Assembly: GCA_963790205.1 (NCBI GenBank)
Contig: CAWBNQ010000001.1
Span: 1,088,001-1,152,000 of the forward strand
Length of the DNA: 64,000 bases
From: Nitrospirota bacterium
GTDB taxonomy: Bacteria; Nitrospirota; UBA9217
Reading direction: 5' to 3'
The notes beneath the pieces are model-generated. The model worked only from the letters and a program-made list of their open reading frames with translations, was not told where the DNA came from and made no database searches. The position numbers and the translations under genes are program-made. How positions within the stretch are numbered: position 1 is the first letter of the stretch; every line of letters begins with the position of its first letter. Shown here one piece after another: positions 31,335-51,367 of this stretch.

Positions 31335-31361
31335 AGTCACCATGACACCGGTCCGTATCCG

Positions 31362-31727
31362 ATGAAGCCTCCTCTCTTCCGGCAGGCGCTGCCGGGGTCT
31401 GCCATCGTGCTCATTGTTGATGACGAACCCTCCACCCGAGAAGCCTCCTTCTATGATGTATGCTCCGGACCGCAGGGTATGTTGTTCTCGAGGCCTCGTC
31501 CGGTCCCGAGGCCCTGGAAGAGCGCCGGGCAGCAGTGCAAGATCGATATTCTCCTGACGATATCATCATGACCGGCCGCATGCTGGCCGAGATCCTCAGT
31601 ACCCGGTTATCGGTCTGGATATGATCTTCATGTCATGATACATCGATGACTCGCGCAGTGAGACCATGGAGCAGGGCCTCCATTACATCCAGCAGCCGTT
31701 GAACTGGAAGAAACTGGAGGATATAAC
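31362..31727 (+). pseudogene. Degraded response-regulator receiver domain
   Basis: VLIVDDEP, then after frameshifts IDILLTDIIM, IFMS*Y, YIQQP. Confidence 0.65.
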
Positions 31728-31957
31728 ATGATTTACAGGGAAAAAGGGAAAAGGGAACCTGAACCCCCTCCAGCCGATTAGCAACCCCCCCCCTAATCCG
31801 CATTTGACCAACCCTCAGGACCGGTCCAAAAGACCGCCGGGCAGGCGATTGGGCTAGAACTGATGCAATGCAAAACCGTAACTTTAGGTTGATTTTTCAG
31901 CCGGCTCCAGGTTAAAAATAGTATACTCTTTTTCGGCTTGGCTTCGGGTAAAACAGA

Positions 31958-34645
31958 ATGGCATACATCAACGATTCCGACAAAGGAATCAGAAAAATCT
32001 ATACAATAATAGCGTACACAAGCACATCCGTTACCGCAGTTTTCGGGATTGCGGGTCTTGCAGCCTGGTGGCTCGTTCATCCGCGCTCCGACAGTCTTTT
32101 GATGGCCCCGGCAACGGCCGTGTCGTTCATGATGCTGGGCAGTGCCTTGCTGCTCAAGGCCGGAGGGGGCAGCCGTCCTTTCGTTCGGCAGTCGGCCCGG
32201 GGCATTACGATCGCGGTGACCTTCTTTTCCATCCTGGTCGTATTGCAGGCTGTCGCGGGCATCGTGCTCGGGATGGAAATATTCTTCCCCCGCGCCGATG
32301 GAGCTTCCCCGCAGGTTCCGATCGACCGCATGCACGCTGTTACCGCCGCAATTTTTTCATTGTCAGGGCTTTCCGCCATACCGCTTTTTTTCAAGAGCGT
32401 CTCAAAAATCCCCATAAAATATGTCTCGGTTGCGATGTCCTCACTGTTGTTCACCGCAGGCGCTCTTCTTGCGGCTTCCTGCTGGGAGGGGACGCCGCTT
32501 CTCTATAACGGCAACACCATATTGGTAAACTTGTCCACGGCGCTCGGCTTTCTCACGCTCGGGCTCGGAGTTCATTCATTGTCAGCCCTGCAGAGTCCCT
32601 CCGAGAAGTGTGAAGACGACCTTGAACGCCATTCTCTGAGAAGAGAGCTTCCGGCGGTCCTCACTCTGAGTACTGGAATTGCCTTGGCTGTTGTATTCTT
32701 CACCATTGTGCACCGGCTGGAATTTAAGGCAATTCAGAATGAATTCAACCGTGACACCGAAAACTTCTCGGTGGCGCTTGAGAGGGGTGTTGAAGGGAAA
32801 CTGAACGCACTCCGCGACCTCGAGGGTTTTTACGGATCTTCCGCTCACGTGACAAGGGCCGCTTTCCATACCTATGTGAACAACGTATTATCGCACAATG
32901 CCGGTATTTATGCTCTTCAATGGATGCCTCGCGTCGCGGGCGCAGAGCGAAGCGCCTACGAGGCCGCCGCGACCAGGAACGGTTTTTCACAATTCCGCTT
33001 TACGAAGCTGAACGCGCAAAGGCAGGTCGTCACTGCCGATGAGCGGGATGAGTACTTTCCCGTCTACTATACGGAGCCATACCGGGAAAACAGGATGACG
33101 CTCGGTCTGGACCTCGCATCGATTCCCGCCCGCAAGCTACTTCTCGATAAGGCACGGGATACGGGAGCGGCGGTAGCCACTGGCAGGCTCAGGTTGCTCC
33201 AGGAAAAAGGCGACAAATACGCCTTTCTCGCAATACAGCCCGTCTATCGCACTGGTTTGCCTCATTATACGCTTAAAGACCGTCGAAGGAATCTGATCGG
33301 CTTTGTTTCCGGAGTTTTTTATATCGGAGAACTGGCCGAAGCTGCATTAAAAGGAATTAATCTGGAAGGAATTAAAATCTCCCTGGTTGACGATTCCGCT
33401 CCGCCGGATGAGGCCGCGCTCTACTCAAATCTCACACAAGAGAATTCCGCAGGCAGCATTTTATACTTTCTCACAACACTGAATATCGCGGACCGAAAAT
33501 GGGCGGTGGAATTCTACCCGACAGATCAGTACCTGTCGGCGCATAAGACCCCCTACTCATGGGCGATTCTCGGCTGTGGGTTCGGTTTTACCATTCTGCT
33601 TACCTTATACGCTTCCAAGAGAGAACGATATGCTTCGGAAATCGAGCGATCAAACAAAATCATCGGAACTGTCCTGAACAGCATAGACGCAGCTATCTCT
33701 ATCATCGGTTCAAAAGATTTGAAGATACTGGCGTGCAACAAGGTGTTCATGCAAGAGGCAGGAGTGGAGGAGGAGATCGTTGGCAAGCCGTGCCACGAGG
33801 TGCTGTATAAGAGAGTACCAACCTGTCGCGAGGAATGCATCGTGAGACGCGCGATGGAAACAGGGGAGCATGCCGTCCGCGAGCATCTCCATTACACCCC
33901 TGACGGAGCAGAAAGACATCGCGAGGTCAGCGTTTTTCCGGTCAAAGACGCTACGGGAAGCGTGATACAGATAGTACATGTTTCACAGGACATAACCGAG
34001 CGCAAGCAGGTGGAGCAGGCGCGGCTTCAGGAGCAGGAAATGCGCCGGCTGTCCGCGGAACGGCAGGTCGTCGAAGCGCAGCTCCGTATCCTGCAGGCCC
34101 AGATAGAGCCCCATTTCCTGTTCAATACCCTTGCAAACATAGTCAGTCTTGTTGACAACGAACCGGCAGCCGCCAAGCAAATGCTCCAATATTTCACGAC
34201 CTATTTGCGCCAGTCGCTGCAGCAGTCCAGGAAGGACAGTTCCACGCTGGGCCAGGAGGCGGACCTGCTCAAGGGCTACCTCAGCATCTTCAAGCTGCGG
34301 CTCGGTCCGCGATTGCAATTCAAAATAGATATTCCCGAAGGATTGCGCGAATTGCCGGTCCCTCCGATGCTCTTGCAGCCTCTGGTGGAAAACTCGATTA
34401 TCCATGGCATCGAACCGAAGGTCGAGGGCGGCACGATAACAGTCGCGGCAGAAAGACATGAGACACTTCTTCGGCTGGTGATCTCGGACACCGGCCTTGG
34501 CTTCACGGACCTGGTAAAAGCGAACGGCATGGGCATCAATAATGTGAAATCGCGCCTCCAGGCGCTCTACGCAGATCGCGCCGGTCTTGTTCTCGACGAG
34601 AACACCCCCTGCGGTGTAACCGCGGTCCTTGAGGTGCCGTTATGA
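31958..34645 (+). CDS. LytS/YehU-type sensor histidine kinase with TM region, CHASE and PAS domains
   Basis: EYFPVYY..P...LGLDL (CHASE); QAQIEPHFLFNTLA; LLQPLVENSIIHG; DTGLG. Confidence 0.92.
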   Translation: MAYINDSDKGIRKIYTIIAYTSTSVTAVFGIAGLAAWWLVHPRSDSLLMAPATAVSFMMLGSALLLKAGGGSRPFVRQSARGITIAVTFFSILVVLQAVAGIVLGMEIFFPRADGASPQVPIDRMHAVTAAIFSLSGLSAIPLFFKSVSKIPIKYVSVAMSSLLFTAGALLAASCWEGTPLLYNGNTILVNLSTALGFLTLGLGVHSLSALQSPSEKCEDDLERHSLRRELPAVLTLSTGIALAVVFFTIVHRLEFKAIQNEFNRDTENFSVALERGVEGKLNALRDLEGFYGSSAHVTRAAFHTYVNNVLSHNAGIYALQWMPRVAGAERSAYEAAATRNGFSQFRFTKLNAQRQVVTADERDEYFPVYYTEPYRENRMTLGLDLASIPARKLLLDKARDTGAAVATGRLRLLQEKGDKYAFLAIQPVYRTGLPHYTLKDRRRNLIGFVSGVFYIGELAEAALKGINLEGIKISLVDDSAPPDEAALYSNLTQENSAGSILYFLTTLNIADRKWAVEFYPTDQYLSAHKTPYSWAILGCGFGFTILLTLYASKRERYASEIERSNKIIGTVLNSIDAAISIIGSKDLKILACNKVFMQEAGVEEEIVGKPCHEVLYKRVPTCREECIVRRAMETGEHAVREHLHYTPDGAERHREVSVFPVKDATGSVIQIVHVSQDITERKQVEQARLQEQEMRRLSAERQVVEAQLRILQAQIEPHFLFNTLANIVSLVDNEPAAAKQMLQYFTTYLRQSLQQSRKDSSTLGQEADLLKGYLSIFKLRLGPRLQFKIDIPEGLRELPVPPMLLQPLVENSIIHGIEPKVEGGTITVAAERHETLLRLVISDTGLGFTDLVKANGMGINNVKSRLQALYADRAGLVLDENTPCGVTAVLEVPL

Positions 34646-35397
34646 GCGTACGGGTTTTGATCGCCGATGATGAACCAAAACTGGCAAAGTATCTTGCCGA
34701 ACGTCTGGTCGCACTCTGGCCCGGCGTCGAAGTCTGCGACACCGCAGCAAACGGCGACGAAGCGCTCGCAAAAATACAGGAGCGGAAACCCGACGTGGCC
34801 TTCCTCGATATCAAGATGCCGGGGATGTCCGGGCTGGAGGTCGCCAGAAAGATCAGCCATCCCTGTCTGGTGGTCTTTGTGACGGCATACCATAAGTATG
34901 CCGTGGACGCATTCGAGGAGGAGGCAGTCGATTACCTGCTCAAACCGGTGAACGATGAGCGGCTCAAAAGGACGATAACCCGCATACAAGAACGCCAGGC
35001 CGGCAAGGGCGGGGACCGGAACCTGGAAACGCTCTTGTCCAAGCTCGCCCAGACGATGGAACGCAAGGATGATTATGTGCGCTACTTCCGCGCGACCTCG
35101 GGCAAGGTCACCCGCCTCATCTCCGCCAGCGACGTCCTCTTTATACGGGCACACTCGAAATATACGCTCGTTATTACGAAGGAAGGAGAGTTTTTGATGC
35201 GCCTTTCCCTGAGCCAGCTCATCAAGCAGCTCAATCCTGAACAGTTCTGGCAAATCCATCGTTCCACGATCGTAAACGCTTCCAAGGTCATTTCCGTAAT
35301 GCAAACAGGCCGCGAAGAGCACGTGCTCCGTATCTGTGATCATGAGGCACTTCTGCCGGTGAGCAGGTCGTTTCTCCATTTGTTTAAACAGATGTGA
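34642..35397 (+). CDS. LytTR family response regulator
   Basis: IADDE, FLDIKMP, FVTAY, DYLLKP; C-terminal FWQIHRSTIVN. Confidence 0.95.
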   Translation: MSVRVLIADDEPKLAKYLAERLVALWPGVEVCDTAANGDEALAKIQERKPDVAFLDIKMPGMSGLEVARKISHPCLVVFVTAYHKYAVDAFEEEAVDYLLKPVNDERLKRTITRIQERQAGKGGDRNLETLLSKLAQTMERKDDYVRYFRATSGKVTRLISASDVLFIRAHSKYTLVITKEGEFLMRLSLSQLIKQLNPEQFWQIHRSTIVNASKVISVMQTGREEHVLRICDHEALLPVSRSFLHLFKQM

Positions 35398-35732
35398 AGG
35401 CAAAACAGGCGCTGCCGTATCGCCTTCAAGGATCATGATACTTTATTATCAATTTTCAAAGCCCTTCCCCTCCGAATAAGCGTCGTTATTCATTCCCTGT
35501 GGTCGTATTTCAATCCCTGGAATTCTTCTTTGGTCGCAAAGTAGTTGCAAGAGAGGTTGTCGCCCTATAATATTGTACCCATTCTAAAATAATCCATTTT
35601 GTGTGAAGGGGTTCAGATTTCCGTTTTTTGGTGCTATACTTAGCCCTATATACCAAGAGGTTGAATCCGTATGTTTGGCAAAAAAATGGTCAATGGTCAG
35701 ATGGGAAAGAAGATCAAAACGAAGACCGACAG

Positions 35733-35931
35733 TATGCTTACAGGTATGTCTTCGACCATCCCTATGCAGTGGTCACCGATGCCTCGGGCAAGTTCTTCAT
35801 AAAAGATATCCCGCGGAGATCTATACTATCGAAGCCCGGCACGAGGCGCTGGGAAACGAAAAAATCGCCGACGTAAACATCGAAAGTGGAAAGCCATCAC
35901 CATAAGGCTGAAATATACCAAGAAACAATAA
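35733..35931 (+). pseudogene. Frameshifted remnant paralogous to the C-terminus of the downstream gene
   Basis: HPYAVVTDASGKFFIKDIP / YTIEARHEALG..ADVNIESGK versus NPYGATTNAKGEFTIKDIPAGTYTVEAWHEALG..ANVKVESGK. Confidence 0.75.
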
Positions 35932-35954
35932 TTCTCTGATCAAGAAGGAGGTAC

Positions 35955-36671
35955 ATGATGCGAAAAGGTAGTATTTTTCTCAGTGTCTTTGCAGTAATGT
36001 TTTCTTTGTCCTCGGTTTCCTTTGCCTATGAAACAATCGAGGTCAAAAATGGAGGAAGCATTGAGGGAGTAGTGGAGTTTGCAGGAGCCAATGTTCCGAA
36101 GGACCCGATACTCCACCTCAGCTCGGAGACGAAATACTGCGGGAAAAGCCTTCCCGCGGAAAAATATATGATCAAGGACCGGAAGATCGAAAATGTGATC
36201 GTGTATCTCGTGGATGTCAAGTCCGGGAAGGCCGTTCCGACCACGCCCATCACCCTGACCAACATAAAATGCGCGTTTGAACCCCACGTTGCCGTGGGCT
36301 TCAAGGGTGGCAAGATCACCCAGCGGAACGATGATCCCATCTTCCACAATATCCATACCTATTTGAACGGAAGGACGATGTACAACATCGGTCTTCCTGA
36401 AAAAGGTTCTTCGGTCACGAAACCGCTGCTCCGGGACGGACTCTTGGAAGTGACCTGCGACAGCCATCCCTGGATGCACGGCTTCGTCCAGATACTCGAC
36501 AATCCCTATGGCGCAACCACCAATGCAAAAGGTGAATTTACGATCAAGGACATACCCGCCGGCACGTATACGGTTGAAGCCTGGCATGAAGCGCTGGGCA
36601 AAGTCAAGGAAGCGAACGTCAAGGTTGAAAGCGGAAAGACCACTAAGATCAAGATAGAATACAAAAAATAA
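35955..36671 (+). CDS. Exported cupredoxin-like protein with carboxypeptidase-regulatory-like domain
   Basis: Signal peptide; FHNIH...CDSHPWM potential type-1 copper ligands. Confidence 0.75.
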   Translation: MMRKGSIFLSVFAVMFSLSSVSFAYETIEVKNGGSIEGVVEFAGANVPKDPILHLSSETKYCGKSLPAEKYMIKDRKIENVIVYLVDVKSGKAVPTTPITLTNIKCAFEPHVAVGFKGGKITQRNDDPIFHNIHTYLNGRTMYNIGLPEKGSSVTKPLLRDGLLEVTCDSHPWMHGFVQILDNPYGATTNAKGEFTIKDIPAGTYTVEAWHEALGKVKEANVKVESGKTTKIKIEYKK

Positions 36672-36711
36672 AGGCGGTGCCATTCTAACAACTACATCTA
36701 AGGAGGAGGTC

Positions 36712-37974
36712 ATGAAAAAAGGAATTTTTTTATCGGTCCTGTCACTGCTGCTCGCTGTCATCCTGATGCCGCTCGAGTCCCAGGCTGTTCCATCCTATGC
36801 CCGGCAGGTCAAGAAGCCCTGCACCGCCTGCCACACCGTCTGGGGGAACCTGAACCAGTACGGCAGGCAGTTCAAGGTCAAGGCCTACACGGACGTGAGC
36901 CCCGACTGGGAGATGATCAACAAGGACAACATGAACCTGCCCGTGACCGCCCCGTTTTCCACGAGGGTCGTCATGGAGCCTCTGGTACATGAGAGCGGTC
37001 TCTCAACCCCGGGCTCGAGTGATGTAAACCAGGTCGCGATCTTCATGGCGGGCAGGGTTTTTGACTACGCCGGCATATTTACGAGCGCCGAGGCTGATGG
37101 TTTTGGCTCTACGGGCGGCACTTTTTCCATACCGACAGTTAAAGTGGCCTTCCAGTATCCGCTGGGAGAGGGGAATACCATCGGCCTGGTCTCCTTCGCA
37201 GGGCTTGCTGCGTCAGCAGACCCTTTTAACAGCATCGGGGGCAGGGACCGGGACCTGCTTTTTGATGACGGGACGCCCTTTATCCTGAACACCGGCTGGA
37301 CGTTCAACTTCTGGAGCCCGAACAACTTCGGTGAAGTTCTTCACGGTTATTTCATCGGGAACCGTCTCTATGCAGCCGTCGGCGTGATGAGAGGCGGAAG
37401 CGCAGGGGACGGTATCGGCGGCCTGGCGAATAATGATAAGTCGGACCCCAATGATATGTACTCGCGCATCGCCTGGGACCAGAAGCTTCCGAACGGCGCG
37501 GTCACCGTCGGGCTTGTTAACTATAACGGCACCCAGCGGATGCTTGACATCGCCGGTAACCCTGCGTACGATTCCAAGGTCAAGAGGACCTATGCCGACC
37601 TGTCGCTGGAGCAGAATTACGGAGAGGACCACCTCGTCGAAGTGCAGGCCATCTACGGAGGCGGCAAGGACGAGGACGCCTTCGGCAACAGCACGGACAG
37701 AAAGTTCAACGGCTCCTATCTTGAGGCCGATTATTATTATGACAGGACCTTCGGGGTGATCGGCGCCATCAACAACATCACCTATAAGGATGTCGTTCTC
37801 GGGGTCGACCCGAATCCGATGGATACGCAAAAGCAGTGGATGGCCGGTTTCAATTACCTGCCCTGGCTGAACACGAAATTAGCCCTTCAATTCAGCAGCA
37901 CCAAAACGACGCTTGTGGACGGCACGAGCTCGACCGACAGGATAAGCAAGGTCATTCTGGATCTGCTGTTCTAA
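36712..37974 (+). CDS. Cyc2-like monoheme cytochrome c-porin fusion
   Basis: Signal peptide then VPSYARQVKKPCTACH...LNQYGRQFK; beta-strand-rich remainder ending in Phe. Confidence 0.8.
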   Translation: MKKGIFLSVLSLLLAVILMPLESQAVPSYARQVKKPCTACHTVWGNLNQYGRQFKVKAYTDVSPDWEMINKDNMNLPVTAPFSTRVVMEPLVHESGLSTPGSSDVNQVAIFMAGRVFDYAGIFTSAEADGFGSTGGTFSIPTVKVAFQYPLGEGNTIGLVSFAGLAASADPFNSIGGRDRDLLFDDGTPFILNTGWTFNFWSPNNFGEVLHGYFIGNRLYAAVGVMRGGSAGDGIGGLANNDKSDPNDMYSRIAWDQKLPNGAVTVGLVNYNGTQRMLDIAGNPAYDSKVKRTYADLSLEQNYGEDHLVEVQAIYGGGKDEDAFGNSTDRKFNGSYLEADYYYDRTFGVIGAINNITYKDVVLGVDPNPMDTQKQWMAGFNYLPWLNTKLALQFSSTKTTLVDGTSSTDRISKVILDLLF

Positions 37975-38043
37975 CATTTATGTGAGCCCCCCGGGGGACG
38001 GACCCGCCCCCCGGGGTTTCCCCTACAAAAGCAGGAGGTAGCG

Positions 38044-39789
38044 ATGGCGGAAGCCGGCGTAAGCAAGGGCATCCTCAAAGGCATTATAAAGTTTACTGCC
38101 ATACTCGGCGCAGGGTTCGTACTCCTTGCCGTATTGAAAAAAGTGCTGCCCCTGCCCACGGAAGACGGGTACCGGTTTTTCCCCCTGATCGGCAGCAGGG
38201 ACTGGATCTGGATCGTGGCCCAGCTCCACTTGAATTTTGCCGCTTTTGTCCTCGGGGTCCCCATCTTCGCCGTGACCATGGAGTACCTCGGATGGAAAAA
38301 GGGAGAAGCGAGACTGGACCGGATCGCTTATGATTTCACCAAGCTCTTCACGCTCGCCTATACCGTGACGGCGGTGCTGGGCTCGGTCTTCCTCGTGAGC
38401 CTTCCGCTCCTCTACCCGAAATTCATCGATTACATGATGAAGATCCTCGGGCCCACTTGGTGGCTGTACCTCATCGTGATGTATGGCGAGGTGTTTGTCT
38501 GCTATTATTATTTCTATTCCTGGCAAAAAATGAAGGGCCGGAAGGGCCTGCATGTGCTCCTGGGCGTGCTGTTAAACGTCCTGGGCGCGACGCTTTTGTT
38601 GATCACGAGCGCCTGGGTCGGGTTCATGACTACCCCGGCCGGCGTGAGCCCGGACGGCGAGCTTTTGAGCAGGTGGGCCGCGATCCATACGCACATGTGG
38701 ATCCCTCTGTTCCTGCACCGGTTCGTGGCCAATATCGTGTTCGGGGCCGGCATCGCGGCGGCCTATGCCGCGTTCCGGTTCATTACGGCCAGGACGCCCG
38801 AAGAAAAGGCGTACTATGACTGGATGGGATACACCTCCGCGATCATCTCGATCGGGGCCTCTCTTCTGCTTCCCGGAGTCGGCTATCTTCTCGGCGTTGA
38901 AATTTATTCCTTCAACGAGCAGATGGGTATCCAGCTTATGGGCGGGTTCTTTGCGTGGCTCTGGGTCATGCAGGCGATCATGATCGGGGCGATCCTGTTT
39001 TTTATCAACTATTATCTCTGGATATCGCTCCAGAAGATGCCGGGCGGGGAGCGGTATTACAAGTACGTGAAATTCCTGTTCATCGTTCTTCTTCTCGGAT
39101 ACGCCGTATGGATCACGCCGCACGACGTGGCGCTGAGCCTGGAAGAGGCGCGGCGCACGGGCACGTACCACCCGGCCCTCGGGAAACTCGGCGTGATGGC
39201 GGCCAAGAATACGGCGGTCATCCTGTCCTACCTCGCGACATTCCTGAGCTTCGCCATTTTCCGGATGAGCAATAAGGAACCGACCGTGTCCTGGGCAAAG
39301 ACCGGTCACCGGGCGCGCGCGATCATCATAGTCGTCTCGGCCGCGGGCGTGCTGGCGCTCGGCATCTACAGCTACCTGGTTCCGGCCGCGGTACGGGTGA
39401 AGGTGCTTTCGCCCATCCAGTTCGGACTCTTCTTTGTCGGCCTTGCCGCACTCTACATCCTGGACAACTACATGTACAAGGGCGCGAAGATAATCGGTGA
39501 GCCGCGGTGGGGCAGGATGCCAGAGCGGTCGCAGTATGCGCTCATCGCGATCACCGTGACCTTTACCTGGCTCATGGGGATGCTGGGCTACATGAGGGCG
39601 GGCGCCAGGCAGTACTGGCATGTGTACGGGATCATGAAGAACACGAGCCCCGACGCCTTTCTGCCCACCCACGGCTATGCATCGGTCGTGGTCACGATCG
39701 TAACGTTGCTCTTCTTTGTGCTCATCTCCCTGGTGTTCTGGAGCATCATGAAGCTCGAGCAAGTCGCTGAAAAAAGGAGGGGGCACTGA
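38044..39789 (+). CDS. Cytochrome bd-like oxidase subunit I (CydA-like)
   Basis: Many TM helices; AQLHLNFAAF, FLHRFVAN, GYMRAGARQYWHVYG (variant of GRQPW). Confidence 0.8.
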   Translation: MAEAGVSKGILKGIIKFTAILGAGFVLLAVLKKVLPLPTEDGYRFFPLIGSRDWIWIVAQLHLNFAAFVLGVPIFAVTMEYLGWKKGEARLDRIAYDFTKLFTLAYTVTAVLGSVFLVSLPLLYPKFIDYMMKILGPTWWLYLIVMYGEVFVCYYYFYSWQKMKGRKGLHVLLGVLLNVLGATLLLITSAWVGFMTTPAGVSPDGELLSRWAAIHTHMWIPLFLHRFVANIVFGAGIAAAYAAFRFITARTPEEKAYYDWMGYTSAIISIGASLLLPGVGYLLGVEIYSFNEQMGIQLMGGFFAWLWVMQAIMIGAILFFINYYLWISLQKMPGGERYYKYVKFLFIVLLLGYAVWITPHDVALSLEEARRTGTYHPALGKLGVMAAKNTAVILSYLATFLSFAIFRMSNKEPTVSWAKTGHRARAIIIVVSAAGVLALGIYSYLVPAAVRVKVLSPIQFGLFFVGLAALYILDNYMYKGAKIIGEPRWGRMPERSQYALIAITVTFTWLMGMLGYMRAGARQYWHVYGIMKNTSPDAFLPTHGYASVVVTIVTLLFFVLISLVFWSIMKLEQVAEKRRGH

Positions 39790-40304
39790 TGAAAAAAGGC
39801 ATCCTGAAGCTCGCGGGCATCATCGTGGGCCTGAACTTCTTGTTCATGTACATCGGCCTCGAATTTCTGCCCCAGTCCGAGTCCCGGCCGCCGAAGGTCA
39901 TCAAGATCGAGGAAGGCATCTCCCAGGACGATCTCATCCATGTGGGTGAAGAGATCGTGTTCGGGAAAGGCCAGTGCATGGTCTGTCATCCGGTAAAACC
40001 GGAAGCGGGCATGAGGGCCCCGGCAATGTCCACCATCGGGGCGGAGATCGAAAAGGAGGCGAAGGAGCGGGGGATCACACCGGAAGAGCATGCCTTCGAG
40101 GCGCTCGTGAACCCGTCCAAATACATCGTGAAGGGCTTCGAAGACATCATGTCGCCCGTGCACACGCCCCCGACGTCCTTGACCGACGGAGAGATCATCG
40201 CGGTGGTCGCTTATCTGCAGAGCCAGGGTGGAAAAGTGACGGTATCCTATCCCGGGTCCGTTCCGGTCCTGAAAGACCAGATATCGAAAGCAGGAGGGAA
40301 GTAA
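39789..40304 (+). CDS. Membrane-anchored monoheme cytochrome c
   Basis: N-terminal TM; CMVCH; distal IMSP. Confidence 0.88.
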   Translation: MKKGILKLAGIIVGLNFLFMYIGLEFLPQSESRPPKVIKIEEGISQDDLIHVGEEIVFGKGQCMVCHPVKPEAGMRAPAMSTIGAEIEKEAKERGITPEEHAFEALVNPSKYIVKGFEDIMSPVHTPPTSLTDGEIIAVVAYLQSQGGKVTVSYPGSVPVLKDQISKAGGK

Positions 40305-40305
40305 G

Positions 40306-41109
40306 ATGCAATTCATATTTCCCATCATCACCATACTGGGCGTGGCGATCGCGATCGCCTCCAGCCGGAAAAGCGCCCCGTTCTTTCAGTTCATCGGCAT
40401 CCTTGCCGCCATCTACGCCGGATTAAAGAGCGTGTCGCTCGTGATGCCCCCGCTGCCGGGGCAGGTCGTCCACATGTTCATGATCATGTCCTTTTTTTCG
40501 TTCCTCGTCTATTTCTCGATCCAGGACGAAACGCTCAAGGCCTTTCTCGAGCCCATGCGGGCGGTGCTTGCCGACGACGACAAAAAAATCCCGAGGATCG
40601 TCATCGTCTACATCCTCATCCCCGTGCTGGCCGGATATTTCACCTACGCCGCGGTAAAGCCCGCCTTTGAACCGCCGCTCTCGCCGAGGATCACGCATCC
40701 CGAGCCGCCGTCGCAGATCGACTTCAAAGGAAATACCATAAATATTCTCGGACTGGAAAACCCCTTGCGCAAGGATACGGCCAATTTCACGGCTAATGTA
40801 CAAGAGGGGAAAGTCATTTACTTTCAGAACTGCTTCTTCTGCCACGGCGCAGACCTCGACGGGCGGGGACAGTTCGCCCAGGCGTTCAACCCGCCGCCCC
40901 CTCCCTTCCGGGGCACGGATACGATCGCGCAATTGCCGGAGTCGTATGTTTTCTGGCGCATTGCAAAAGGATGGAGGGGCCTTCCGCCGGGCGCGACCCC
41001 GTGGGATTCAGCCATGCCCTCATTCGAGGATATGCTGACCCAGGATCAAATATGGAAGGCAATTCTCTACATTTACGACGCTACCGGCAACAAACCGAGG
41101 ACGTGGTGA
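40306..41109 (+). CDS. Membrane protein with C-terminal monoheme cytochrome c
   Basis: About four TM helices; CFFCHG; SAMP. Confidence 0.88.
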   Translation: MQFIFPIITILGVAIAIASSRKSAPFFQFIGILAAIYAGLKSVSLVMPPLPGQVVHMFMIMSFFSFLVYFSIQDETLKAFLEPMRAVLADDDKKIPRIVIVYILIPVLAGYFTYAAVKPAFEPPLSPRITHPEPPSQIDFKGNTINILGLENPLRKDTANFTANVQEGKVIYFQNCFFCHGADLDGRGQFAQAFNPPPPPFRGTDTIAQLPESYVFWRIAKGWRGLPPGATPWDSAMPSFEDMLTQDQIWKAILYIYDATGNKPRTW

Positions 41110-41110
41110 C

Positions 41111-42559
41111 ATGCGAAAGGGAGATTTTACCATGAGGCTGCTTATAGCCATTATCCTGCTGGCGTTAATTCCCATTGCCGCTTTCCCCGAAGAGAAGGGA
41201 AAGGCCATCTATGACCAGTGGTGCTCGTCGTGCCACGGCGAAAAAGGGGACGGGAAGGGCCCTGCTGCCGATTTCGTGTGGCCGAAACCGAGAGACTTTA
41301 CCAAAGGTACGTTCAAGTTCAAATCGACCGGGTCCGGCGAGCCTCCCCTCGATTCTGACATCATGCGCACGATCCGGGAGGGGAACCCCGGCACCTCGAT
41401 GCCGGCTTGGAAGCGGTTCAGCGATGACGAGGTAAAGTCGCTGGTGGCGTATATCAAAGCGTTTTCGCCCGATACCTTTTCGATACAGGGCACCCCTTTC
41501 AAGATCGGAAGCCCTTCGGGCAGCAAAGACAAGATGACGGCACTGGGGAAGGAGATGTACCAGACCGCGAAGTGCTGGGAATGCCACGGCAAGGCGGGAA
41601 GGGGCGACGGCGAGAAGGGCTGGCAGGAAAAGTTCAAGGACGATTGGGGGAACAGGATCTATCCCGCCGACCAGACCCACCCCTGGGAATACCGGGCCGG
41701 CAGCGATCTGAAGGACGTGTTCAAGACGATTTCCGTGGGTTTTGATGGAACGCCCATGACCTCCTACGGGGACACGGTCCCGGATGAGAAAAGATGGGCC
41801 CTTGCGTATTACGTGCTGTCGCAGCAGCAGATAAGGAACCTCGGCCCGGCATTGCGGGTAAAGAAGGTGAAAGACCTCCCCGCTGCAACGGACGACCCGG
41901 TCTGGAAGAGCGTGGACTACCTCGACCTTCCGATGGCCGGGCAGGTGATCTTCGACCCGCGTGATTTTACGGCCCTCATAACGAACGCGAGGGTGCGCGG
42001 CGTCTACACCGGTTCGGAGCTGGCGGTGATGGTCGAATGGACCGACAAGCAGCAGAATCCGGCCAAGGGCGACGGCAGCCTCCCTCCTGATGCCGCGCGC
42101 ATACAGTTCCCCACGAAGATGACGGAAGGCGCCCGGCCGTATTTTTTCATGGGAGACAAGAAACTCGGGGTCAACGTCTGGCAGTGGAAGGCATCGGACA
42201 ATCTCGCGAACGAATTCATCGCAGCGGGACCGGATGAGGTCACGCAGCAGGAAAAACAGGATGTAAAGGTCGTTCCAACATATACCGAGGGGCAATACAG
42301 GATTCTCTTCACGAGGCCGCTCAATACGGGCGACGAGAAACATACGGTCTTCGAGATCGGAAAGTTCATGCCTTTTTCAGTTACCCTGTATGACGGCAGG
42401 AATCATGAGGCGGACAAGAAGGGCGCGATCTCCGCGTGGTACTATATGATGCTGGAACCCCCGACGCCGGCAACCGTGTATATTTTCCCGCCGATAGTAT
42501 TCTTGATTTTCCTGGGAATCGGGCTGCTGCTGCATAAAACAGTGAAGAACAGAGAATAG
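41111..42559 (+). CDS. Diheme cytochrome c with ethylbenzene-dehydrogenase-gamma-like (DOMON heme) domain and C-terminal TM anchor
   Basis: CSSCH and CWECH; PDAARIQFP, PYFFMGD, VNVWQWK; start may be 41132. Confidence 0.82.
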   Translation: MRKGDFTMRLLIAIILLALIPIAAFPEEKGKAIYDQWCSSCHGEKGDGKGPAADFVWPKPRDFTKGTFKFKSTGSGEPPLDSDIMRTIREGNPGTSMPAWKRFSDDEVKSLVAYIKAFSPDTFSIQGTPFKIGSPSGSKDKMTALGKEMYQTAKCWECHGKAGRGDGEKGWQEKFKDDWGNRIYPADQTHPWEYRAGSDLKDVFKTISVGFDGTPMTSYGDTVPDEKRWALAYYVLSQQQIRNLGPALRVKKVKDLPAATDDPVWKSVDYLDLPMAGQVIFDPRDFTALITNARVRGVYTGSELAVMVEWTDKQQNPAKGDGSLPPDAARIQFPTKMTEGARPYFFMGDKKLGVNVWQWKASDNLANEFIAAGPDEVTQQEKQDVKVVPTYTEGQYRILFTRPLNTGDEKHTVFEIGKFMPFSVTLYDGRNHEADKKGAISAWYYMMLEPPTPATVYIFPPIVFLIFLGIGLLLHKTVKNRE

Positions 42560-42569
42560 GCGCGGTAAT

Positions 42570-43565
42570 ATGTATAAAAAAATATTCATTCCCATCGATA
42601 ATTCGAAATATTCCCGTTTTTGCACGGACATCGGCGTGTCCCTGGCAGCGCGGTTCGGCTCGGAACTGACCGGCAGCCACGTGTACAGCGCGGCGCTGCA
42701 CGACAAGCGGTTCCGGGACATGGAGGTGGGACTTCCCGGGCACTACCAGGAGGAAGAAAGGCTGAAGAAATCAAGACAGGTCCATGATTCCCTGATCGGG
42801 GACGGCCTTAAGATGATCTCGGACGCCTATCTCGAATCCTTTAAAAAGGAATGCCGGGATTCCGCGGTGCCTTTCAACTGTAAAATGATGGAGGGGAAGA
42901 ACTGGTCGGAGCTCGTAAAAGATGTTCGAAGCAGCGGGTATGATCTGGTGATCATGGGGATCCTCGGCCTGGGTGCGATGAACGGCAACCTCATTGGAAG
43001 CGTGTGCGAACGGGTCGTGCGAAAAGTTGACGCCGACATCCTGGTGATTAAAAACGGCGCGCCTCTGAGCGGCAGACTGGTCGTGGCGATCGACGGGAGC
43101 GATCATTCCTTTTCCGCTTTGAAAAAAGCGCTGGCCCTCTGCAAGCGATTTCATGCGAAGATCGAAGCCGTATCCGTCTACGACCCCTATTTTCACCGGC
43201 GTGCTTTTCAGGCGCTTGTGGGGGTGCTTTCCGACGAAGCGGGAAAGATGTTTCGGTTCAAGGAGCAGGAAAAGCTCCACGATGAGATCATAGACGACGG
43301 GTTGGGCAAAATATACCAGGGCTACCTTGAACAAGCCGTTCAGATGGGGTCCGCTGAAGGGGTAGCAGTGAAAAGCACCCTTCTCGCAGGAAAGGCTTAT
43401 GACGAAATACATAAGCACCTGGAAAAAGATCCGCCGTCTCTTCTCATCGTAAGCCGCTTCGGCGCCCACAGGACCGACGAACAGGACATCGGCAATACCG
43501 CGGAGAACCTGCTCCGCCTCGCGCCGTGCAATCTGCTCATCACCGGCAGTTCTCATGCTGAGTAG
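42570..43565 (+). CDS. Tandem universal stress protein
   Basis: KIFIPIDNS..., DLVIMGILG...GSVCERVVR; second domain VAIDGS...GNTAENLLR. Confidence 0.9.
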   Translation: MYKKIFIPIDNSKYSRFCTDIGVSLAARFGSELTGSHVYSAALHDKRFRDMEVGLPGHYQEEERLKKSRQVHDSLIGDGLKMISDAYLESFKKECRDSAVPFNCKMMEGKNWSELVKDVRSSGYDLVIMGILGLGAMNGNLIGSVCERVVRKVDADILVIKNGAPLSGRLVVAIDGSDHSFSALKKALALCKRFHAKIEAVSVYDPYFHRRAFQALVGVLSDEAGKMFRFKEQEKLHDEIIDDGLGKIYQGYLEQAVQMGSAEGVAVKSTLLAGKAYDEIHKHLEKDPPSLLIVSRFGAHRTDEQDIGNTAENLLRLAPCNLLITGSSHAE

Positions 43566-43576
43566 CTCCTGACCGG

Positions 43577-44941
43577 ATGCTGGAAAAAACCTCGCCCCCA
43601 AAGGAGATTATGCCGGCTGCTCTTCCCTCCGCGTCCTCTGCGAGCCCTGTGGCACATAGGTTTTTTATGAACGACCTTCACGTCATATCCTGGAACGTTA
43701 CCAGGCGGTGCAATCTCGAATGCGCCCACTGCTACCTTCCCGCGACCACCAGAAAAGAGCGTCCCGGACTCTCATCCGCAGACGAACTCACCACGCAGGA
43801 GGCCTTTCAGCTTATCGACCGGATCGCATCCGTCAATCCCGAGGTCATGCTGATCCTTTCCGGGGGCGAGCCCCTCCTGCGGGAGGACATTTTTGAGCTG
43901 TCGACGTATGCATCGGGCAAGGGAATGATGGTCGTTTTGGGGTCCAACGGCCTCCTTATCAATGAAGCCGCGGCCCGCATGATGAAACAGAGCGGGGTGT
44001 CCGGGATAAGCATCAGTCTCGATTCCGTCAACCCCGAAATTCACGATGCCGTTCGCTCGCACACGGGCGCGTGGGAAAAGGCGGTTTCGGCAATCACGAT
44101 CTGTAAAAAGGAAGGGCTGTCAGTCCAGATCAATACGGTCGTTACCGGAAAGAACCATGACGAGCTGCCGCAATTGATCGCCTATGCCCGCGACCTCGGG
44201 GCGAAGGTCTTCAGTCCTTTTTTCCTGGTCTGCACCGGCAGGGGAGAAGAGATGACGGACCTCTCTCCGCTGCAATATGAAAAAGTCCTGTCGTTGATCG
44301 CCGAAGCGCAGGAGAAGCGCGATGATATCATGATACGGACACGGTGCGCACCCACGGTAAGACGGATCCTGCATCAGAAAAAACCCGGGTCGCGTCTTCT
44401 CACGATGGGCGCGGGCCGCTGTCTTGCGGGACGATCCTATTGCAGGATCACGCCCGAAGGGGACGTTACCCCTTGCCCGTATTTGCCCCTTTCAACGGGG
44501 AATATCCGGGAGCAGGACTTCGGCGACATCTGGCAAAATTCCGCGGTCTTTAATTCCCTGAGAAACCCCTCGCTCAAGGGCAAATGCAAAAAATGCGCAT
44601 ACCGGCTTCTCTGCGGCGGCTGCAGGGCGAGGGCGTACGCCGCCGGTCATAACGATTACCTGGGAGAAGATCCGTGGTGCGACTACCTGCCTCAAGGAGG
44701 AACTGTGATAAAATCGCCGACCTTTGAAACGAATGCGGAAGCAGCAGAGTCCGCGACATCAACACCCCTCTGGACCGCAGAGGCGGAGGAGCGCCTGAAA
44801 AAGGTCCCCTCGTTCGTCCGAAATATGGTGCGAGGCGCCGTCGTGCGCTATGCGGTCGAACATAAATGCCGGGAAATCACCCCGCAATTGATGGATGAAG
44901 TCCGGAAAAAGTCAGGAATGGGAGGAATGCATGGACATTGA
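43577..44941 (+). CDS. Radical SAM/SPASM protein (NirJ/AhbC/AhbD-like) with C-terminal PCP-reductase-like domain
   Basis: CNLECAHC, SGGEP, CLAG..CRI.P.G.V.PC, CKKC..CGGCRARA; WTAEAEERLKKVPSFVR; start may be 43668. Confidence 0.88.
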   Translation: MLEKTSPPKEIMPAALPSASSASPVAHRFFMNDLHVISWNVTRRCNLECAHCYLPATTRKERPGLSSADELTTQEAFQLIDRIASVNPEVMLILSGGEPLLREDIFELSTYASGKGMMVVLGSNGLLINEAAARMMKQSGVSGISISLDSVNPEIHDAVRSHTGAWEKAVSAITICKKEGLSVQINTVVTGKNHDELPQLIAYARDLGAKVFSPFFLVCTGRGEEMTDLSPLQYEKVLSLIAEAQEKRDDIMIRTRCAPTVRRILHQKKPGSRLLTMGAGRCLAGRSYCRITPEGDVTPCPYLPLSTGNIREQDFGDIWQNSAVFNSLRNPSLKGKCKKCAYRLLCGGCRARAYAAGHNDYLGEDPWCDYLPQGGTVIKSPTFETNAEAAESATSTPLWTAEAEERLKKVPSFVRNMVRGAVVRYAVEHKCREITPQLMDEVRKKSGMGGMHGH

Positions 44942-45212
44942 CGGTCTCTTAACAGAACAGGAAAAAACGTTTTTCCACCGAGTGGCAAAGCGGAAAATGC
45001 TTTTCCTGGCGTCAAGCATTGCGACGGTCGTCGTTGCCGCATCAATCCTTGTATATCACGGCCTGGTCGCTCACGACATGAACGACCTCCGGTTCGCCAT
45101 CATAATCATCCTCCTGCTCTCCGGCCGCGCATATATGAGGCTTTATAAGAGCGCCGTGATCTTCAGCAAGCTGAAACCCGGGCCGGTCACAGAACAGTCG
45201 AAACACGTTTGA
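44931..45212 (+). CDS. Small two-TM hypothetical protein
   Basis: GGAGG RBS; overlaps radical SAM stop; two hydrophobic segments. Confidence 0.7.
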   Translation: MDIDGLLTEQEKTFFHRVAKRKMLFLASSIATVVVAASILVYHGLVAHDMNDLRFAIIIILLLSGRAYMRLYKSAVIFSKLKPGPVTEQSKHV

Positions 45213-45356
45213 TGCATTCCTGAAAAGCACGTTTGCCACGGAGACACACCCTGCTGTTGCCAAAACGCGGGTGCAGGCAGAGACACGGGGTCCCTCTACA
45301 GATTCCCCGCGCTCTCTTCTCGCCGCCGCCCGCTGTAAAATTCTATCAGAGCAACA

Positions 45357-45824: not shown

Positions 45825-45910
45825 GCAATCCGAAATCGCCAATCCGCAATCGAATAAATCCCCATCGAATTGCTTGACAAAAACAGGCCGTATACTATAA
45901 TCGATCAGAA
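45825..45910 (+). repeat. Direct repeat B copy 1 containing a consensus promoter
   Basis: GCAATCCGAAATCGCCAATCCGCAATCGAATAAATCC...TTGACA(45874)-N16-TATAAT(45901); near-identical to 47731-47815. Confidence 0.9.
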
Positions 45911-45956
45911 CTACCCACGAAAGAAGAATTACTTTCCCCTGGATTTGAAAGTATTG

Positions 45957-46268
45957 ATGCTGGGAGAGCGAAAATTGCTGGTCCCGAATGCTGAAAAGGT
46001 GAACATCACAAGGGACACCCTCACCGTTGACTTGAGCGACGGAAGGACCATTTCCGTTCCGCTCGCATGGTTCCCTAGACTGCTCCATGCCACGAACCAG
46101 GAACGCAAGCATTGGAAGCTTATCGGCAAGGGGCAGGGCATCCACTGGGAGGACATCGACGAGGACATCAGCGTCGGAGGACTGCTTACGGGAAGGCCGT
46201 CAGGGGAAACGCAAGAATCTTTCAAGAAGTGGCTGGAGCGGCGACAAACCAAGCGCAGGGCGCATTGA
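45957..46268 (+). CDS. DUF2442 domain protein
   Basis: LTVDLSDGRTISVPLAWFPRLLHAT...GIHWEDIDEDISV. Confidence 0.88.
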   Translation: MLGERKLLVPNAEKVNITRDTLTVDLSDGRTISVPLAWFPRLLHATNQERKHWKLIGKGQGIHWEDIDEDISVGGLLTGRPSGETQESFKKWLERRQTKRRAH

Positions 46269-46292
46269 CGCAAGTCTGAGTCAGGTGAGACG

Positions 46293-46949
46293 ATGCTGCG
46301 ATTTCAAAGACCGCCGGATGCTGTGTTTCAGGCTATACTGCGCGATAGCATGGATTTTTCAATCGACTTTATCCATATTCTGATTGAGAATAACGAATAC
46401 GACGAGTCGCGCGCGAGAGAAGACATGAAGTCGGATTGCCCCGCGATGGCAAAAGTATTCACTCCGTCGCTTGCCCGGACCACGCTGCTGAAATTAAGAA
46501 AGTGTCTGGACAGGCCTGAAATATATTCTCTGAATAACTACCATTATCTCCTCCTCTTTGACGCAATTGCTTATTATGCCGACATACACAATGATATGAT
46601 TCCAATGGCGGAAAGCAGGGGAGAGAGAAAAGAAGCGTCCTTTGTGGACCCATTTTACATTGAAACAATTGACGTGGACGGCCTTCTTGGGTTGTATTTT
46701 TTTGACACGGATTTTTTAACCGACGCGGAAACGATGCTGAATGTTCCGGACTGGTTTAGAGCTTCATACAGCCCGGAAACGTTTGGTTTGTCTCTGGGAA
46801 TGTTGCCGCATGACGAGGAATTGGAACTGAAAATCGATACGGATGAAGATGCGGGCTTGTATAAGGTGACTCCGTCCGATTACTTCGGCCCGAAATCAAA
46901 GGTATATCCTGATTTTGATTATTGCCATGACCAGCATCCTGAAAAATAA
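46293..46949 (+). CDS. Acidic hypothetical protein
   Basis: 218-aa ORF with AGGTGA RBS; no motif recognised. Confidence 0.7.
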   Translation: MLRFQRPPDAVFQAILRDSMDFSIDFIHILIENNEYDESRAREDMKSDCPAMAKVFTPSLARTTLLKLRKCLDRPEIYSLNNYHYLLLFDAIAYYADIHNDMIPMAESRGERKEASFVDPFYIETIDVDGLLGLYFFDTDFLTDAETMLNVPDWFRASYSPETFGLSLGMLPHDEELELKIDTDEDAGLYKVTPSDYFGPKSKVYPDFDYCHDQHPEK

Positions 46950-47008
46950 AGCTCATGCGGCGTTTGGCCCCTTTAGAATCCTTTGACGATAAAGACCGCG
47001 CGCCCTTC

Positions 47009-47037
47009 TTGACAATATCATTTAAATGATATAATAT
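47009..47037 (+). promoter_or_regulatory. TA operon promoter with palindromic operator
   Basis: TTGACA followed by perfect palindrome ATATCATTTAAATGATAT (47015-47032) overlapping TATAAT. Confidence 0.75.
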
Positions 47038-47063
47038 TGCGAATGCGGTAACAAGGAGGCCCC

Positions 47064-47336
47064 ATGCCGGTGATAAAACCCATTTCCGACCTGCGCAACA
47101 AGGCGAACGAGATCTCGGACCTCGCCCACAAGCTGAATGAACCCATCTTTATAACCAAAAACGGCGAGGGCGACATGGTCGTTATGTCCATGGCGCGATA
47201 CGCGCAGTTTCAGTTGAAGCTCGACCTTTTCAGCAAACTTGCCGTGGCCCAAAACCAGATCGCCTCCGGCGACAAGGGGAGAACGCTCAAGCAGGTCATG
47301 ACGGACCTCAGGAAAAGGCTTCATGAGCCCGCGTAA
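47064..47336 (+). CDS. Phd/YefM family antitoxin
   Basis: IKPISDLRNKANEIS...PIFITKNGEGDMVVMS. Confidence 0.92.
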   Translation: MPVIKPISDLRNKANEISDLAHKLNEPIFITKNGEGDMVVMSMARYAQFQLKLDLFSKLAVAQNQIASGDKGRTLKQVMTDLRKRLHEPA

Positions 47337-47631
47337 GCTTGCGGTCAAGCTCCTCAGGATCGCGGAAGACGATCTCGCCGAAATCATCACGTTTATTGCG
47401 GAGGATGACATAGTCGCCGCCGAAAAGCTTGCCGACAAAATTGAGACCCGGCTTGCACGGCTCGCGGACCATCCCGCTCTTGGCAGAATCCCGGCTGAAG
47501 AGGAGCTCGCCCGGCTTGGCTACCGCTATCTTGTCGTTGACAATTATCTTGTTTTCTATACCGTGAGCGCACAGACAGTCCTTATCCACCGGGTCATTCA
47601 CGGCGCGAGAGACTACGTCAATCTGCTTTAG
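47323..47631 (+). CDS. RelE/ParE family toxin
   Basis: AEDDLAEIITFIA...LADHPALGR...YLVFY...IHRVIHGARD; overlaps the antitoxin. Confidence 0.92.
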   Translation: MSPRKLAVKLLRIAEDDLAEIITFIAEDDIVAAEKLADKIETRLARLADHPALGRIPAEEELARLGYRYLVVDNYLVFYTVSAQTVLIHRVIHGARDYVNLL

Positions 47632-51200: not shown

Positions 51201-51367
51201 GACACTGTAATGTTCCGGCTTTGTATACCGACAATCCTGTTCTCGGTTCATGGGTTAATAGGCAACGTTCGATGAAGAAAAAGAATCGATTGCCAGAAGA
51301 CCGCGTTCAGCGACTGGAGGAAATAGGATTTGCTTGGACTCTGCGAGAAATAAGTAAGAAGACGTGA
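48266..51367 (+). CDS. Mrr-like endonuclease + SF2 (DExH) helicase + seven helicase-associated (HA) domains
   Basis: GDAFE...DEGADI...VQAK; ATGTGKS, DEFH, TATP, LNEGLHIP, QQIGR; 7x WEQMF..L..FK..HGHCNVP...LG.WV..QR...RLE.IGFIW. Confidence 0.92.
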   Translation: MGIKLHELLINKDSSSVKAYLQELPSHEKGDAFEKLLAELYRGNGWLVSVQGGRGDEGADILLYHPKSPQTVSFIVQAKNHAKPLTLDQTRIELIKFEQQAAPRYKCQQFRIVAINGFVQEADKLGQFNILLDSWSYVESLHKRYDPGMNAEPKIELYAHNRATYENIQDLWQDNDHVAVIQATGTGKSFLIAQPLADFQGKRKIVLAPSHFILDQQKSKAPWANEKTTYWTYAGLAQKSETAVKALKCALIVLDEFHRCGADVWGKSVQMLLDTHPDAKVLGTTATPIRYLDENRNMAEELFDGVVATELSLAEAIVKRILPAPTYISALYTMEEEVRNLLTDIEASKRPEEEKVALRAEIQALKVDWEKTSGIPEILKKHLPSGINKLIVFCRDQQHLDEMEIEVQKWFQKAGVHHFREKYRVISADPASKKNLQCFKDADDKDTVHLLFAIDMLNEGLHIPEVGAVILLRPTVSPIIFYQQIGRCIEVGKDHTPIIFDLVNNFQNLRVTDFLVDLQIAKEEEKRKRSAFDLEDYAPGIHIEELTRPIEAIFESIYERLSPWETQFAALLTFKEKHGHCNVPQSYADNPALGTWVNNQRALKKKNRLPNDRIHRLETIGFVWGPLADTWEQMFVMLLAFKEKHGHCNVPQSYTDNPALGPWVNTQRAYKKNNRLPEDRLQRLEKTGFIWDLLDDAWEQMFSELHKFKEKHGHCNVPQTYDDNPALGTWSNNQRTLKKKNRLPEGRVHRLEEIGFIWGPRDDVWEQMFAALRAFKQKLGHCNVPTVYNDNPVLGRWVDMQRQMKKKNRLPEERVQLLEKIGFIWDPYDDAWEQMFAALRTFKEEHGHCKVSKSYAENPALGTWVGTQRVRKKRLPEDRVQRLEEIGFIWNPYDDAWEQMFVALRTFKQKQGHCNVPAVYDDNPVLGRWVNTQRSMKKKNQLSEDYMRRLEDIGFIWDLLDDAWEQMFAALSTFKKNNRHCNVPALYTDNPVLGSWVNRQRSMKKKNRLPEDRVQRLEEIGFAWTLREISKKT
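49953..51338 (+). repeat. Seven tandem coding repeats, period 201 nt (one of 195 nt)
   Basis: GGACACTGCAATGTT-like anchor recurs near 50000, 50201, 50402, 50603, 50804, 50999 and 51200. Confidence 0.92.

Follow-up and report, generated by a model that had tools for sequence, protein, structure and literature searches.

A Cyc2-like cytochrome-porin gene in a conserved Nitrospirota operon with a CydB-less bd-like module

Here we analyse a 64,000-nucleotide stretch (the window) of a Nitrospirota genome (assembly GCA_963790205.1, contig CAWBNQ010000001.1, positions 1,088,001 to 1,152,000), in which nine head-to-tail genes on the + strand, at window positions 35955-45212 in the list of open reading frames (ORFs), join a Cyc2-like outer-membrane cytochrome-porin to a CydA-like membrane protein and its cytochromes. 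This is a real, conserved operon that brings known, partly unassayed parts into an apparently undescribed combination. A full-text literature search, most subscription papers lying outside it, gave no description of a Cyc2 gene that shares an operon with a bd-like module, nor of a bd-like module inside a nos cluster; within the literature so searched, the coupling is as new as a first-pass annotation of this DNA had supposed. By analogy, the operon may encode an outside-in chain that leads electrons from Fe(II) through the porin, a copper protein and cytochromes to the CydA-like subunit and O2. We put this reading forward tentatively, at somewhat less than an even chance.

Results

The porin is a Cyc2-like variant

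The 420-residue product of the second gene (36712..37974, + strand) starts with a hydrophobic stretch (residues 4-22) followed by SQA, as in a signal peptide, carries its sole CXXCH at C37-H41 and ends in Phe. No family in Pfam or NCBIfam matches it, and its homologues are named 'hypothetical' in databases. Modelled with 89 homologues, it forms a 16-strand barrel (mean predicted local distance difference test score, pLDDT, of 79, falling below 50 in the haem region 22-74), and its structural matches are general porins including OprP. A signal peptide, a single N-terminal CXXCH, a 16-strand barrel and a length above 365 residues are what has been described for Cyc2, together with a strict motif of AXPXFAR[QK][TY] upstream and PXL downstream of CXXCH (10.1101/228056). 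The window porin fails this strict motif, reading AVPSYARQV..CTACH with GNL downstream.

The haem site itself is well kept. One CXXCH is present in 116 of 120 close homologues, a relaxed form of the upstream motif in 115 of these 116, and PXL in 90 of them. A profile built from the porin found 2471 cluster representatives at E 0.001; among 148 newly listed matches, 144 carry CXXCH and 71 the strict motif. One relative is HAM50271.1 (P0073 in our set, from Nitrospirae UBA9159), 54% identical over the full length. It also departs from the strict motif (ARQI), yet it is shown among Cyc2 homologues in a 2026 paper (PMC13647500), in which contig pieces orthologous to a UBA9159 protein are called cluster-2 type Cyc2. 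Because of the architecture, the identity to HAM50271 and that placement, we call the porin Cyc2-like, file it as a variant rather than a strict Cyc2 member, and regard it as probably belonging to cluster 2. Both the Cyc2-like identity and the beta-barrel anticipated in the first-pass annotation were borne out.

A plain uptake porin is ruled out by the conserved haem motif. We consider it very improbable that the protein instead serves another substrate, such as Mn(II), sulfur species or copper taken up, as a channel or sensor plugged by haem. The variant motif, the fast divergence and swapping of the barrel, and the occurrence of Cyc2 homologues in 125 of 401 Nitrospirota genomes, many of them not known as iron oxidisers, would fit such a role; against it argue the Cyc2 architecture and a relative, 54% identical, that has been grouped with Cyc2 of cluster 2. 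In the host genome (G000) a further gene, at G000:C5:191644-192600 (L246:5645-6598), fuses a Cyc2-like N-terminal haem motif to CopD-like and cytochrome-b5-like domains, with no barrel.

Porin and bd-like module are tightly linked

We scanned 401 Nitrospirota genomes and found this CydA, at 86-95% identity, in 6 of 63 other genomes of the host family. The porin lies directly upstream of CydA in all six, although one of these loci is cut by a contig end and one is in pieces. Among 66 metagenome CydA loci, 15 reach at least 80% identity, and the porin is present in 11 of the 11 that retain upstream DNA, some of which are repeats of one sequence. Two partial loci (66 and 78%) have no upstream DNA, and the porin is absent from all 43 loci at 34-50%. 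No linked locus that we read has an intervening gene between porin and CydA. On operon conservation, the check proposed at first pass, the linkage is therefore tight. From the other side, 71 distant Cyc2-like loci were chosen among the listed matches, each 3.6-20 kb long and several lying at contig ends, and none has a bd-like gene. The window from 31000 to 45278 is covered unbroken by one peat metagenome contig with 124 letters differing, which rules out an assembly chimera, and all named relatives are Nitrospirota metagenome-assembled genomes (MAGs).

The porin tree and the CydA tree disagree. Constraining the window porin to group with the loci of its CydA clade was rejected by the approximately unbiased (AU) test (p-AU 2.5e-87), as were two further porin/CydA cross-tests (p-AU 1.2e-64 and 2.3e-47); the groups for these tests were chosen after inspection of the trees. 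Since the trees conflict and the AU tests reject, the porin was likely exchanged in place while its slot was kept, which suggests selection on the porin slot.

Between porin and CydA, a G+C-rich hairpin followed by a short U-run (37989..38016, + strand) recurs in 15 of 15 aligned linked loci. In the alignment 89.6% of cells are paired, with little covariation, and in most cases the fold energy does not stand out from that of shuffled sequences (z -2.9 to +0.4 across linked loci). Because energy and covariation are weak, the argument for the hairpin rests on its presence in 15/15 loci; it is likely a leaky terminator or an mRNA-stabilising stem. The annotation of all genes as one operon thus stands as to conserved gene linkage, whereas full co-transcription stays a proposal, given the conserved hairpin.

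The hairpin, together with the occurrence of each half without the other, speaks for two co-regulated but separate units, the cupredoxin-Cyc2 pair feeding a general periplasmic cytochrome pool and the bd-like module acting alone, for instance to scavenge O2 or NO. The module is missing beside close porins in L004, L047 (with only 505 nt of downstream DNA), L048 and L049, and beside more distant ones in L051 and L052. Such a split is improbable in our judgement, as no gene intervenes in the linked loci read, the porin slot survived in-place replacement, and the stretch from porin to CydA showed no promoter-like site. In L051 (G301:C39), the genes directly 5' of a cupredoxin and Cyc2-like gene are ccoN-ccoO of the cbb3 type.

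The CydA-like protein resembles OR-N-type bd-like proteins

The third gene (38044..39789, + strand) encodes a 581-residue membrane protein whose Cyt_bd_oxida_I match is limited to residues 57-288. Its model (pLDDT 83.5) has 14 long helices, against 13 segments by hydropathy, and its ten best structural matches are all CydA chains (Foldseek E 4e-8 to 5e-6). We read residues from a 60-row alignment against E. coli CydA, in which the C-terminal half aligns poorly. Equivalents of R9, H19, H186 and R448 are present in 60 of 60 rows and that of E107 in 58. H62 of the window protein is invariant, so that H19 is kept, as it is in OR-N; M385, M299 and M511 are the invariant candidates for the M393 equivalent.

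Among the hallmarks of canonical cytochrome bd (qOR), namely the quinol site, E99, E107, E445 and CydB, only E107 is kept, and neither the ORF list nor Pfam revealed a cydB in the operon. The retained H19, the lost quinol site, about 14 helices (N1/N2), the missing CydB and an operon with other electron donors fit the description of OR-N1/N2 (10.1101/2021.01.16.426971), a group proposed to be a cytochrome-c-fed O2 reductase (10.1101/2021.01.16.426971, PMC10839748). Of the CydB-less bd-like oxidase annotated at first pass, the CydA-like fold and the lack of CydB are retained; O2 reduction stays a proposal, with E99 and E445 absent in 60/60 rows and the nearest relatives lying in nosZ clusters. 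Elsewhere in the host, G000:C3:1050804-1053340 (L247:16805-19337) encodes a distant CydA-like protein with a C-terminal CXXCH beside a second membrane protein, resembling an OR-C pair.

The operon supplies carriers of high-potential type

The first gene (35955..36671, + strand) encodes a secreted cupredoxin-like protein, likely a periplasmic carrier, with a type-1 copper ligand set (H131, C168-x2-H171-x2-M174) that predicts copper binding. The motifs FHNIH and CDSHPWM are kept in 14 of 15 orthologue rows, Pfam finds a C-terminal CarboxypepD_reg-like domain, and there is a weak match (E 0.009) to 5FC9, a solved blue-copper protein. One member of its clade (24 rows, support 99) precedes a Cyc2-like gene with no bd-like module, and the cupredoxins found ahead of nos-linked modules fall outside this clade. 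Of the 71 distant Cyc2-like loci, 7 have a related cupredoxin nearby.

CydA is followed, on the same strand, by a membrane-anchored monohaem cytochrome c of His/Met type (39789..40304; H67, M121), a monohaem cytochrome c with four N-terminal hydrophobic helices (40306..41109; H180, invariant M237), and a dihaem cytochrome c (M97, M216) fused to an EB_dh haem-b domain with a C-terminal anchor, of alt-NxrC type (41111..42559). CXXCH counts are one in the porin and 1, 1 and 2 in these three cytochromes, and a conserved Met is kept for all four c haems of the module. Haems with His/Met ligands and type-1 copper are as a rule of high potential, and the operon holds carriers of this type. A tandem universal stress protein (USP; 42570..43565), a NirJ2/AhbD-like radical SAM/SPASM enzyme with a C-terminal PCP_red domain (43577..44941) and a small two-helix membrane protein, the conserved last gene (44895..45212), complete the operon, whose intergenic gaps are, in order, 40, 69, -1, 1, 1, 10, 11 and -47 nt. 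The Pfam names are Cyt_bd_oxida_I, Cytochrom_C/CBB3, EB_dh, Usp and Radical_SAM+SPASM+PCP_red, and the cupredoxin, porin, CydA-like, cytochrome, USP and radical SAM genes listed at first pass are all in place.

The radical SAM enzyme scores below the NCBIfam family cut-offs (331/500 and 325/500 bits) and likely tailors haem for the module. Since it and the USP gene also accompany bd-like modules without the porin, we count both as part of the module. The CydA-like protein with its three cytochromes matches TO_1 of Ca. Manganitrophus, in an organism for which Cyc2 and TO_1 are treated as separate candidates (10.1101/2021.11.15.468770). A matching bd-like_3/alt_NxrC_2 cluster is common to Nitrospira, Nitrospina and Kuenenia, for which both terminal-oxidase and reverse-flow roles have been proposed (PMC3578206, PMC6606698). 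Its content of bd-like protein, mono- and dihaem cytochromes c, alt-NxrC and cupredoxin-like gene is all found in the window operon.

The host encodes conventional oxidases as well

The host genome is 98% complete. It encodes an A-type haem-copper oxidase on another contig, two canonical CydA and, on reading of its ORFs, a NorB-like protein. It also has dsrA (in two frames) with dsrB, dsrMKJOP-like genes, acetyl-CoA synthase, an NiFe hydrogenase and 39 ORFs with at least three CXXCH. The first-pass view of an otherwise anaerobic organism did not hold in the face of these oxidases, and the host looks facultative rather than strictly anaerobic; the selenoproteins annotated alongside do fit, with an in-frame TGA in 4 of 13 molybdopterin-enzyme matches. 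G000 gave no nosZ or napA and, at E 1e-30, no match of narG/NXR type, so that the evident high-potential sink is O2. Among five operon-bearing relatives tested, dsrA exceeds the cut-off in two and lies in two pieces in one more, and napA is present in two.

In the host, dsrA occupies two reading frames at G000:C14:63700-64873, maybe through an assembly error or as a broken gene; a similar split occurs in G243. Three 8-haem proteins of 820-1090 residues lie with NHL-repeat genes at G000:C3:288096-317919, and 10- and 9-haem proteins lie beside an MtrB-like porin at G000:C1:398911-403880.

Sister modules lie in nos clusters

Eight genomes carry CydA at 72-77% identity, and none has the porin nearby. 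Between nosZ and the sister module lie nosR-like, nosD, ABC-transporter and cupredoxin genes, and NosL follows the module in the two loci tested by Pfam. The eighth module (L095, G156:C57), whose contig ends upstream, is directly followed by haem-copper oxidase subunits II and I, read as ba3-like, and then by SCO-like and cyoE-like genes. Six metagenome loci at 70-77% have nos context too, with nosZ visible in three. Named proteins at this identity come from Ca. Magnetobacterium, Magnetominusculus, Magnetomonas and an Aquifex-labelled MAG. In L088-L094, L113-L118 and L258-L264, a four-gene bd-like module sits inside twin-arginine (Tat)-type nosZ clusters, between nosDFY-like genes and nosL, accompanied by two cupredoxin genes, a Tat transglutaminase-like gene and a thioredoxin-like gene. 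The TO_2 complex, considered as the identity of these close CydA relatives, was ruled out because the neighbours are nos genes.

The quick CydA tree took all rows and a careful tree 28 of 60. In the latter, the seven Cyc2-linked rows (100/100) fall within a 14-row clade (100/100) that includes nos-linked CydA, and are nested inside the nos-linked set with support 93/93.

Because E99 and E445 are missing and the module is met in nos, NXR and oxidase contexts, we keep a non-oxidase relay under consideration. In one version, the module would be a proton-motive, complex-III-like coupler that drives Fe(II) electrons uphill to the quinone pool while an aa3-type oxidase reduces O2. Reuse beside NosZ, NXR and a haem-copper oxidase, the host's acetyl-CoA synthase and A-type oxidase, and the reverse-flow role proposed for the matching Nitrospira cluster (PMC3578206, PMC6606698) speak for it. 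We nonetheless judge it unlikely: the known quinol-site residues are absent and the CydA-like alignment revealed no new site, nos clusters already hold NosR-like genes, and reading of ORFs finds Rieske/cytochrome-b and ActAB-like genes in the host.

The nos clusters also bear on direction, as the natural flow there runs from the membrane to a periplasmic reductase, through modules 70-77% identical to ours. In an inside-out conduit, quinol electrons would leave by way of the module, the copper protein and the porin haem, in that order, for soluble Fe(III) complexes or humics under anoxia. For A. ferrooxidans, reverse operation of Cyc2 and rusticyanin in Fe(III) respiration has been proposed (PMC7735108), and the host has hydrogenase and dsr genes. 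We think this quite unlikely, since high-potential His/Met haems and type-1 copper limit the acceptors, and the 39 multihaem ORFs and the MtrB-like porin beside 9- and 10-haem cytochromes suit outward transfer better.

Discussion

In the outside-in chain that we tentatively prefer, dissolved Fe(II) would be oxidised by the Cyc2-like porin, and the electron would pass to the type-1-copper protein, which would ferry it through the periplasm to the His/Met cytochromes. The CydA-like subunit would then reduce O2, even when O2 is scarce, at the H62 haem, taking protons through E149. Owing to the hairpin, the products of the first two genes would be more abundant than the others. At oxic-anoxic interfaces the chain might serve this host, which has dsrAB and acetyl-CoA synthase, both to gain energy and to remove O2. 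As to history, the trees would be consistent with a cupredoxin-Cyc2 cassette having been joined to a bd-like module with its closest kin in nos clusters. We infer every electron-transfer step, Fe(II) as donor and O2 as acceptor.

Several lines favour this chain, besides the conserved linkage, the kept porin slot, the rus-like layout and the lack of nosZ, napA and narG/NXR matches in the host. The Cyc2 proteins tested in the work cited oxidise Fe(II) (10.1101/228056, PMC13647500), among them a Thermodesulfovibrionia cluster-3 Cyc2 in E. coli (PMC13647500). The CydA-like protein retains the H19, E107 and R9 equivalents, the Met ligands of the four c haems are conserved, and in G301 a more distant cupredoxin-Cyc2 pair follows cbb3 genes.

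A number of observations weigh against it. None of 116 close porin homologues has the strict motif AXPXFAR[QK][TY], and the Thermodesulfovibrionia Cyc2 tested is of cluster 3, another subfamily than the window porin (PMC13647500). The terminator-like hairpin stands in every aligned linked locus, and same-subfamily cupredoxin-porin pairs occur without the module in L004, L047 and L048. In the CydA-like protein, both quinol-site positions (K252/E257) are Met and Glu is found at the E99 and E445 positions in 0 of 60 rows; experimental confirmation of OR-N enzyme function is lacking (PMC10839748). A Tat-type nosZ lies upstream, on the same strand, of the sister module in 7 of 8 genomes, and the module type is kept in anaerobic anammox bacteria, where an alternative-complex-III role is proposed (PMC3578206). 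Finally, an A-type oxidase match is present in all five operon-bearing relatives tested, besides the host. We leave the direction of electron flow open because the A. ferrooxidans Cyc2-rusticyanin chain is itself thought to run backwards for Fe(III) respiration (PMC7735108). Of the conduit from Cyc2 to a bd-like oxidase proposed at first pass, the Cyc2-like porin, the linkage and the carriers hold, whereas O2 reduction, flow direction and full co-transcription stay proposals.

A bolder idea, which we hold to be rather doubtful, is that the 'bd-like oxidase' is no oxidase but belongs to a new class of plug-in, proton-coupled electron hubs in the membrane. One clade (70-97% identity) would then be wired either to N2O reductase or to a Cyc2 conduit, letting facultative sulfate reducers (dsrAB Nitrospirota) exchange electrons with extracellular iron either way.

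The function of OR-N bd-like proteins matters for Nitrospira, Nitrospina, anammox and Mn-oxidising bacteria. Sister modules, one set behind a Cyc2-like gene and the other inside nos clusters, offer a paired test of oxidase versus relay from which NXR is excluded. If the chain from Fe(II) to O2 is true, Cyc2 chains would have another terminal route, the third after aa3 and cbb3. It would also point to iron oxidation by Nitrospirota equipped with genes for sulfate reduction, and so connect the turnover of Fe, S and O2 at redox interfaces.

Flanking features and other cassettes

Just upstream of the operon, the C-terminal part of a decayed second cupredoxin-like gene remains in two frames (35730..35893, + strand; tblastn pieces 43-56% identical); an intact upstream cupredoxin paralogue of 53-58% identity is present in L001, L050, L053, L109 and L123. 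A lone paralogue of the operon cupredoxin (53%) lies away from the operon at G000:C6:119579-120325. In two other Nitrospirota families (L206-L210, L212), a dihaem cytochrome c gene comes after a Cyc2-like gene, with a cupredoxin-like gene nearby, and two genomes of this set carry a pair of these cassettes in face-to-face orientation. At 35601, a Rex/CRP-like box that agrees with the consensus at 11 of 14 letters was rejected since it is not kept upstream in 14 other stretches, and the LytTR two-component pair that lies upstream of the operon in the window is not found in L001-L004. After the operon, the letters of the window suggest small toxin-antitoxin-looking genes (45870-47631) and a helicase-like ORF with repeated C-terminal domains (48266-51367).

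Comparison with known systems

The porin shares the signal peptide, the single CXXCH and the 16 strands with Cyc2 of A. ferrooxidans (cluster 2), Cyc2PV-1 of Mariprofundus and the cluster-3 protein of Ca. Mariimomonas. It differs from known Cyc2 in AVPSYARQV and GNL, and its subfamily would consist of putative Fe(II) oxidases. Long homologues (550-600 residues), which we read as Cyt572 type, match the porin only over the first ~60 profile positions.

With canonical quinol-oxidising cytochrome bd (CydAB), the membrane protein shares the CydA fold and H19, H186, E107, R9 and R448, whereas it lacks K252/E257, E99, E445 and an operon-borne CydB, and has extra helices. The OR-N1/N2 module (TO_1; bd-like_3/alt_NxrC_2) is closer, having in common a CydA without quinol site or CydB, two membrane c-cytochromes, a dihaem c-haem b protein and a cupredoxin-like gene. 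Relative to Nitrospira-type modules, however, the window CydA falls in a separate clade (~41% identity, support 100/100), and unlike NXR-associated clusters its module is joined to a Cyc2-like gene, in a genome with no NXR, and has sister modules in nos clusters.

The overall layout recalls the rus chain of Acidithiobacillus ferrooxidans, which runs from Cyc2 through blue copper and cytochrome c to an oxidase (PMC7735108). An outer-membrane Cyc2, a blue-copper carrier, a cytochrome c and a membrane terminal component stand in one operon in both. The window copper protein, in contrast, is a two-domain cupredoxin without a rusticyanin family match, the membrane component is bd-like and not haem-copper, and the host has dsrAB and acetyl-CoA synthase. 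Pfam and NCBIfam found neither rusticyanin nor aa3 oxidase families in the operon, the A-type oxidase being encoded on another contig. By analogy, the window operon would work like the rus operon without being a rus operon.

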